Sequence record: L26387.1
DNA: 519 nt
Reading direction: 5' to 3' (one strand)
DNA from: a phage
Shown one piece after another: positions 1-519 of this stretch (the first letter of the stretch is position 1; each line of letters opens with the position of its first letter). The translations under genes and the position numbers were made by a program. Under the pieces are notes generated by a model. The model was not told the DNA's origin, made no database searches, and worked only from the letters and a program-made list of their open reading frames with translations.

Positions 1-79
1 GACAGTGAGTCACCACACTGAAAGGTGATGCGGTCTAACGAAATCTGACCTAAGACGCTCTTTAACAATCTGGTAAATA

Positions 80-145
80 GCTCTTGAGTGCATGATTAGC
101 GAATAACTCAAGGGTATCGCAAGGTGCCCTTTATGATATTCACTA
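80..145 (+). promoter_or_regulatory. Candidate RNase III processing site (T7 R0.3-like) in the mRNA leader
   Basis: Seen in sequence: a perfect 7-bp inverted repeat, cttgagt (83..89) with actcaag (106..112), extendable by G-U and G-C pairs to about 80..115. An alternative hairpin pairs aagggta (110..116) with tgccctt (125..131), 7 bp with one G-U and an 8-nt loop. The two share the aaggg segment and cannot both form. Established knowledge: T7 has an RNase III site (R0.3) about 35 nt upstream of the gene 0.3 start, which would map to about position 134 here. The exact fold and cut site cannot be determined by eye. Confidence 0.45.
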
Positions 146-155
146 ATAACTGTAC

Positions 156-160
156 GAGGT
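156..160 (+). promoter_or_regulatory. Shine-Dalgarno ribosome-binding site for gene 0.3
   Basis: GAGGT at 156..160, complementary to the 16S rRNA 3' end, with an 8-nt spacer (161..168) before the ATG at 169..171. Confidence 0.8.
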
Positions 161-168
161 AACACAAG

Positions 169-519
169 ATGGTTATATCTAACATGACTTACAACAACGT
201 TTTCGACCACGCTTACGAAATGCTGAAAGAAAACATCCGTTATGATGACATCCGTGACACTGATGACCTGCATGATGCTATTCACATGGCTGCCGATAAT
301 GCAGTTCCGCACTACTACGCTGACATCTTTAGCGTAATGGCAAGTGAGGGCATTGACCTTGAGTTCGAAGACTCTGGTCTGATGTCTGACACCAAGGACG
401 TAATCCGCATCCTGCAAGCACGTATCTATGAGCAATTAACGATTGACCTCTGGGAAGACGCAGAAGACTTGCTCAATGAATACTTGGAGGAAGTCGAAAA
501 GTACGAGGAGAATGAAGAG
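169..519 (+). CDS. ocr: Ocr (gene 0.3 protein), DNA-mimic anti-restriction protein that inhibits type I restriction-modification; 3'-partial in this window (stop codon not in view)
   Basis: ATG at 169 is the first start after the in-frame TAA at 160..162 and is preceded by a good SD. The frame is open for 117 codons to the window edge, translating to [117 protein letters not shown]. This is near-identical to T7 Ocr as I recall it (117 aa), differing at about five positions. By my count it has 32 Asp+Glu against 7 Lys+Arg, with a polyacidic C-terminal tail, matching the known DNA-mimic character. T7 Ocr is 117 aa, so the stop codon should lie immediately after position 519. Confidence 0.93.

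Follow-up and report, generated by a model that had tools for sequence, protein, structure and literature searches.

The question raised by the phage sequence L26387.1 is whether its 519 nucleotides, called the window below and always meant at full length, hide an undescribed system or carry a gene that is already known and, if so, in which form. We find that the gene in the window, ocr, and its genomic context are already known and that the window holds no undescribed system. The copy of the gene is an altered one, and the leader in front of it turned out to be conserved well beyond the phages that encode Ocr.

The left-end early region of T7 is the part of the genome that the host RNA polymerase transcribes first, during genome entry. 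The R0.3 hairpin in the early RNA is cleaved by RNase III and is followed by a strong ribosome-binding site, with abundant Ocr as the result. The Ocr protein is all-helical and very acidic, and as a dimer it mimics about 20 bp of bent B-form DNA.

Detailed work on the dimeric protein has described the monomer as equivalent to about one turn of B-DNA in both shape and charge, and the methyltransferase core of EcoKI is bound far more tightly by Ocr than by DNA (PMC3439906). The affinity of Ocr drops to the level of DNA only after the neutralisation of about 16 acidic side chains in each monomer (PMC3439906). Ocr also blocks BREX, by binding to BrxX (PMC7261183, PMC11317158), and the residues reported to contact BrxX are H48, Y49, Y50, S59, I62, D63, E65, S69, K76, Q83, and W95 (PMC11317158). 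The double mutant F54D/A58E is a dimerisation mutant that forms a weaker dimer (PMC7261183). Finally, the PARIS abortive-infection system is triggered by Ocr, and the substitution F54V escapes this recognition yet still blocks EcoKI (PMC9122126).

Identity of the gene

The window is almost certainly the T7 left-end early region from nt 757 to 1275, that is, the early leader followed by the ocr coding sequence minus its stop codon, in a mutated allele of the laboratory type. A megablast search with the window against 50,697 phage records matched 196 of them, and over its entire length the window aligns with T7 (V01146, nt 757-1275) at 97.7% DNA identity without gaps. The plus strand contains an uninterrupted frame of 117 codons that begins with ATG, and the original prediction had recognised its product as the T7 gene 0.3 protein, Ocr. 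This identification is confirmed by the colinearity with T7 and by protein comparisons. The best PDB chain was 1s7z_A (Gene 0.3 protein / Ocr), with an E value of 7.1e-70 and residues 1-117 aligned on 1-117 (phmmer, PDB chains), and nine more PDB entries of T7 Ocr were matched besides this one. The Pfam family PF08684, "DNA mimic ocr," was matched with 209.8 bits against a cut-off of 25, with positions 1-101 of the 101 in the profile covered, and PHROG 2568, "ocr-like anti-restriction," was matched with an E value of 1e-54.

The translation had been expected to be more than 90% identical to T7 gp0.3 along its whole length, and we obtained 95.7% (112/117 residues identical to PDB 1S7Z), the five mismatches being counted from end to end. 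The two segments that had been singled out as hallmarks, 31 and 19 residues long, are found exactly in the translation. The protein is also as strongly acidic as claimed, with 32 Asp and Glu residues against 7 Lys and Arg residues; T7 Ocr has 34 Asp and Glu residues. F54 and A58 of the dimer interface are present and are invariant in 68/68 homologues, and all of the BrxX contact residues listed above are likewise unchanged in the window protein.

The position of the gene leads to the same identification. Gene 0.3 occupies 925-1278 in the annotation of the T7 record, where its note reads "inhibits EcoB and EcoK host restriction." As in T7-type genomes, ocr in the window is the early gene that comes first after the host promoters and R0.3. 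Compared with T7 gp0.3 (1S7Z, PF08684), the window has the same position, leader, ribosome-binding site, start codon, and number of codons, and its protein differs at the five residues listed in Table 1. The last base of the window is the end of the last sense codon, codon 117, and the stop codon (T7 1276-1278) falls outside, as do the downstream genes; a TAA follows directly after codon 117 in T7 and in T7 isolates P and K. The ocr frame was absent from the listing of complete open reading frames because the window breaks off before the frame is closed.

The literature agrees with the functions that had been attributed to the gene: as a DNA mimic, Ocr inhibits type I restriction-modification enzymes (PMC3439906), it also blocks BREX (PMC7261183, PMC11317158), and it is sensed by PARIS (PMC9122126). 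The original prediction was also right to regard the gene as thoroughly described and an undescribed system as unsupported. What our analysis adds is that the allele is not the wild type but carries five amino acid changes, one of them at a proline invariant in the family, and shows a mutagen-type spectrum of base substitutions and that it stands behind a conserved, structured leader of 168 bases.

Table 1. Features of the window, with positions counted from its first base
Feature	Position	Strand	Basis or remark
5' leader of T7 early (host RNA polymerase) transcripts	1..168	+	Equals T7 nt 757-924
Small hairpin	9..29	+	Stem 9-13 with 25-29, conserved loop with ACACUGAAAG; RNAalifold consensus
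boxA-type sequence GCTCTTTAACA	57..67	+	Exact consensus match
R0.3 RNase III processing hairpin (predicted)	96..146	+	Annotated relatives, folding, covariation
Shine-Dalgarno GAGGT	156..160	+	8 nt upstream of ATG at 169; read from sequence
Gene 0.3 (ocr) CDS, codons 1-117	169..519	+	Translation, PDB, Pfam, PHROG, T7 annotation
A2V	173 C>T	+	Codon comparison with T7
M3I	177 G>A	+	Codon comparison with T7
P73S	385 C>T	+	Codon comparison with T7
E111K	499 G>A	+	Codon comparison with T7
D115N	511 G>A	+	Codon comparison with T7
Synonymous changes	273 (H35), 420 (A84), 498 (E110)	+	Codon comparison with T7
141-codon ORF	435..10	-	Antisense to ocr and leader, TTG start

Coding changes and activity of the allele

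For the five amino acid changes, we examined conservation in 71 Ocr-encoding IMG/VR loci, which were collected with search patterns that excluded residue 73 and which gave 68 distinct core sequences with 46 to 100% identity to T7 Ocr. The family shows variation or gaps at positions 2, 3, 111, and 115. The last two of these lie in a part of the protein with a known tolerance, the final 7 residues of Ocr being dispensable for activity against both BREX and type I enzymes (PMC7261183); here, E111K and D115N together remove two acidic residues and add a basic one. C-terminal truncation to Ocr99 or Ocr109 also left the protein active against restriction (PMC3439906). Residue 73 is a different case. 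It is a proline in all 68 distinct natural homologues and also in the 11/11 phage homologues that were aligned separately. Conservation reaches 97% or more at just 29 positions; the window protein keeps 28 of them, P73 being the one replaced, by Ser.

Judging from these comparisons, the allele probably still protects against type I restriction, since it keeps the acidic patches, F54 and A58, and the BrxX contacts and since all changes but P73S are at variable or dispensable positions. The alternative is that the gene descends from ocr but is functionally impaired, as the outcome of unselected drift on restriction-deficient hosts, with P73S destabilising either the start of a helix or an acidic patch. 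We regard such an impairment as possible but rather doubtful. Apart from the invariance of the proline in the 68 homologues, it draws on the location of the residue, which is the first one of the long C-terminal helix in the structural model described below and which adjoins the most sensitive region of Ocr, the acidic patch of residues 59-73 (mature numbering), where neutralisation abolished inhibition (PMC3439906). Since P73 is both invariant and beside the most important acidic patch, the allele may be weakened. Against this, many single and double mutants of Ocr were without effect in vivo or in vitro (PMC3439906), and the window protein has its dimer-interface residues, 32 of the 34 acidic residues, and all reported contacts intact. 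There is also no nonsense or frameshift mutation, even though four sites at which a GC>AT change would create a nonsense codon were available.

The distribution of the changes bears on the same alternative. Missense and synonymous changes stand at 5:3, where the neutral expectation is 58% missense among the possible GC>AT changes in the gene, and the density of hits is equal in the leader (4/75 G/C sites) and in the coding sequence (8/166). Both the ratio and the density fit neutrality, as would be seen without purifying selection, but with only eight coding changes, this test of selection has almost no power. As for the hosts on which such drift could take place, the delta(mcrC-mrr) deletion removes hsdRMS. 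The laboratory hosts of T7 evolution lines carry this deletion (PMC6042481).

For the reading that we prefer, that of an allele with probable activity against type I enzymes, the remaining concern is P73S as such. An appreciable weakening of Ocr by this change is, on the sequence comparisons, a tentative suggestion that we find rather unlikely. A smaller possibility is that P73S may change the specificity of Ocr, for example, allowing an escape from PARIS with anti-restriction activity kept, by analogy with F54V.

The original prediction had proposed that structure prediction should recover the Ocr fold. With single-sequence AlphaFold2, the four-helix layout of the secondary structure was reproduced (helices 5-22, 34-48, 50-59, and 73-115, the last one opened by residue 73), whereas the tertiary fold of Ocr was not. 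The model has a pLDDT of 69.9 and poor tertiary packing and was used for helix boundaries only. Its best Foldseek match was an Ocr chain, 6r9b_G, with an E value of 1.8e-7 but a TM score of 0.33 and an rmsd of 9.2 Å. We take this match to be driven by sequence, and the model is no evidence of the fold. The poor model is immaterial here because 96% identity to the solved structure 1S7Z implies the Ocr fold.

Origin of the allele

There are 12 differences between the window and T7, at window positions 44, 96, 102, 153, 173, 177, 273, 385, 420, 498, 499, and 511, and all 12 are G>A or C>T changes, six of each on the plus strand. Natural relatives look different: in the six that we compared (phage JeanTinguely and five Teseptimavirus-like contigs from IMG/VR), about one-third of the changes are GC>AT transitions, about one-third are AT>GC transitions, and about one-third are transversions. 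At the natural proportion of one-third, the chance of finding 12/12 GC>AT changes is approximately 2e-6. A dominance of GC>AT changes is what is seen after mutagenesis of T7 with nitrosoguanidine or hydroxylamine (PMC6042481).

The closest records are the T7 isolates P and P82 (AY264777 and AY264778), each with 98.3% identity to the window. Five derived GC>AT changes, at 102, 173, 420, 499, and 511, are common to these isolates and the window, and they include A2V, E111K, and D115N. The isolates have two changes of their own, at 33 (G>A) and 146 (A>C), both of which are lacking in the window, and the window has seven private changes, at 44, 96, 153, 177, 273, 385, and 498, M3I and P73S being among them. 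The combination of shared and private changes places the window on a sister branch of P and P82 and not in the same isolate. T7 isolate K (AY264775) carries eight other changes, seven of them GC>AT, and has none in common with the window. Isolates K and P are presumably tips of the experimental T7 phylogeny of Hillis et al. 1992, which was reportedly grown with nitrosoguanidine. Indirect confirmation that this phylogeny exists comes from PMC4942178.

The window copy thus looks like a descendant of a chemically mutagenised laboratory lineage of T7, on a sister branch of isolate P. This reading was reached from the mutation spectrum and the shared mutations and not from a matching record: a look-up of the exact window protein gave no match, and exact 30- to 31-mers over the window-specific mutations were absent from viral, metagenome, and genome contigs. 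The source sequence has no more than the 519 bases of the window, so it is probably a partial sequence that was deposited as such. The absence of the exact sequence from phage records, including those of the sequenced laboratory isolates, and from the other collections could instead point to a naturally occurring T7-like phage as the source. We consider a natural source very improbable, as the spectrum is far from that of the six natural relatives, as the 5 of 12 changes common to P and P82 and the 0 common to K are distributed like those on the branches of one laboratory tree, and as the nearest natural relatives are merely 89 to 92% identical.

The antisense reading frame

The 141-codon frame on the minus strand is the longest complete ORF listed in the window, but there is next to no chance that it is a real gene, and we rejected it, given that it has no Pfam and no PHROG match, is unannotated in all T7-group records inspected, and starts with TTG. 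The gene on the other strand is highly expressed, and transcription of all genes in this genome runs from left to right. Acidic coding sequence that is GAN-rich can be expected to have long ORFs on its complement, and this one is most likely a spurious by-product of the acidic coding strand.

Relatives of the gene and the locus

Ocr-like proteins of other Autographiviridae, for example, SP6 gp5 and the homologues of Kayfunavirus and Przondovirus, have the conserved core in common with the window protein (F54-D77 and Q83-D93). They are 45 to 75% identical, and all of them retain P73. The loci of T3-type phages (phiYeO3-12, phiSG-JL2, and SH1) share the leader hairpin, boxA, and R0.3 with the window and have their first early gene in the same place, but gene 0.3 of the T3 type encodes an unrelated enzyme, SAM hydrolase (SAMase), and not a DNA mimic.

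Two records with ocr sequences carry other annotations. In Yersinia phage YpP-Y (NC_047939), the ocr frame is annotated inside a CDS for a "serine-threonine kinase" at 469-1096, and the translation leaves Ocr after approximately residue 109, like the fusions that result from deletions between 0.3 and 0.7 (PMC7261183). The record MT350293, "Enterococcus phage EFA-2," contains T7-type ocr DNA of 90% identity under the annotation "receptor binding protein kinase." It looks like a similar 0.3-0.7 fusion, and its host may be a mislabel or the result of contamination.

The early leader

The host promoters A1, A2, and A3 are annotated in V01146 at 498, 626, and 750. The window contains no promoter because its first base lies 7 nt past the position at which A3 is annotated (T7 750), and a promoter and terminator scan of the 519 bases found no sigma-70-like promoter and no terminator-like site. 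A search of the whole window against Rfam, with E values up to 1, gave nothing above threshold; one snoRNA match of 15.5 bits, against a gathering threshold of 40, was taken as chance. R0.3 is not a family in Rfam.

The span of the large hairpin in the leader is the one annotated as the stem_loop "putative RNase III site R0.3" in phiYeO3-12 and phiSG-JL2. From its sequence, the hairpin is the predicted R0.3 site, at which the early polycistronic RNA would be cut just upstream of gene 0.3. Pairing in the aligned leaders reaches 100% in one helix of R0.3 and 94% in the other, and five pairs are altered on both sides. The predicted fold of window positions 80-160 has an energy of -26.6 kcal/mol (z score, -3.9), compared with -25.2 kcal/mol for T7. 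Two of the differences from T7, 96 C>T and 102 G>A, are inside R0.3 and do not weaken the hairpin; G102A turns a G-U pair of T7 into the A-U pair of T3-like phages. Taken together, the three changes of the window in and around R0.3 are slightly stabilising in the predicted fold. In isolate K, by contrast, G>A at the equivalent of window position 114 weakens the top stem of R0.3, and the predicted fold is less stable, at -18.2 instead of -25.2 kcal/mol (z score, -0.7). Further downstream, the GAGG of the Shine-Dalgarno sequence is kept in nine of the 10 aligned leaders, and the tenth sequence stops before that point.

The leader is found in more phages than ocr is. A blastn search at lower stringency matched 620 phage records, and the first approximately 180 bases of the window also match phages of the T3, BA14, and Przondovirus types. 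We aligned 10 leader sequences from nine phages in four genera of the Studiervirinae, and in these the leader module is conserved whichever first gene is downstream. Behind this same leader, T7-type phages have ocr, T3-type phages have the SAM hydrolase gene, and Klebsiella phage IME1309 has a small hypothetical ORF. Unrelated genes behind one leader indicate a regulatory cassette that is conserved independently of the anti-restriction gene.

The named structures of the leader show a clear pattern of covariation. Over all of them, 91% of the cells in the alignment pair, compared with 31 to 42% after a shift of the partners by one to three columns, and the observed covariation score was reached by 0/500 shuffles. 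In the small hairpin near the start of the leader, four of the five pairs are kept through two-sided changes among phages of the T7, T3, and BA14 types, and 88% of the cells are paired; the stem variants of the phage groups are CACC/GGUG, GCGG/CCGC, and GUCAC/GUGAC. A second hairpin (32-36 with 46-50) was dropped, as 74% of its cells were paired and the alignment register was doubtful.

Between the small hairpin and R0.3 is a conserved block at 57-73, GCTCTTTAACAAT(C/T)TGG, which reads GCTCTTTAACAATCTGG in the window. It begins with GCTCTTTAACA, an exact match to the boxA consensus of gamma-proteobacteria, GYTCTTTAANA (consensus from PMC5725501). The consensus has one match in the window and none in 200 shuffles of it, and the match is kept in 10/10 leaders, the lone difference among them being C/T at position 58, which the Y of the consensus permits. 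A literature search found no paper that links boxA, Nus-factor loading, or antitermination to the T7 early leader or early RNA. The boxA of the T7 leader has presumably been noted in the older T7 literature.

By its sequence, the boxA matches a candidate site for the loading of NusB/NusE on the nascent early RNA. The leader of rrn operons consists of boxB, boxA, and boxC followed by an RNase III stem (PMC5725501, PMC8632103), and the window likewise has a hairpin, an exact boxA, and an RNase III hairpin; the rrn leader differs in having a boxC, and none was identified in the leader of the window. By analogy, we tentatively suggest that the hairpin, the boxA, and the RNase III stem could form a module for Nus-factor loading in the style of rrn operons, a proposal that we hold as possible and not as probable. 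In such a scheme, a Nus-loaded host RNA polymerase would be fast and resistant to termination over the first part of the phage genome, and its fast transcription would pull this part of the genome into the cell.

In conclusion, the value of the analysis is chiefly negative: the window is a textbook T7 counter-defence gene without a hidden system. If the phage from which the sequence was obtained still plates on restricting hosts, P73S would be a further data point on the robustness of DNA mimicry by Ocr. The function of the T7-group leader seems to be little studied, and this leader is conserved more strongly than the gene behind it and resembles the leader of ribosomal operons.
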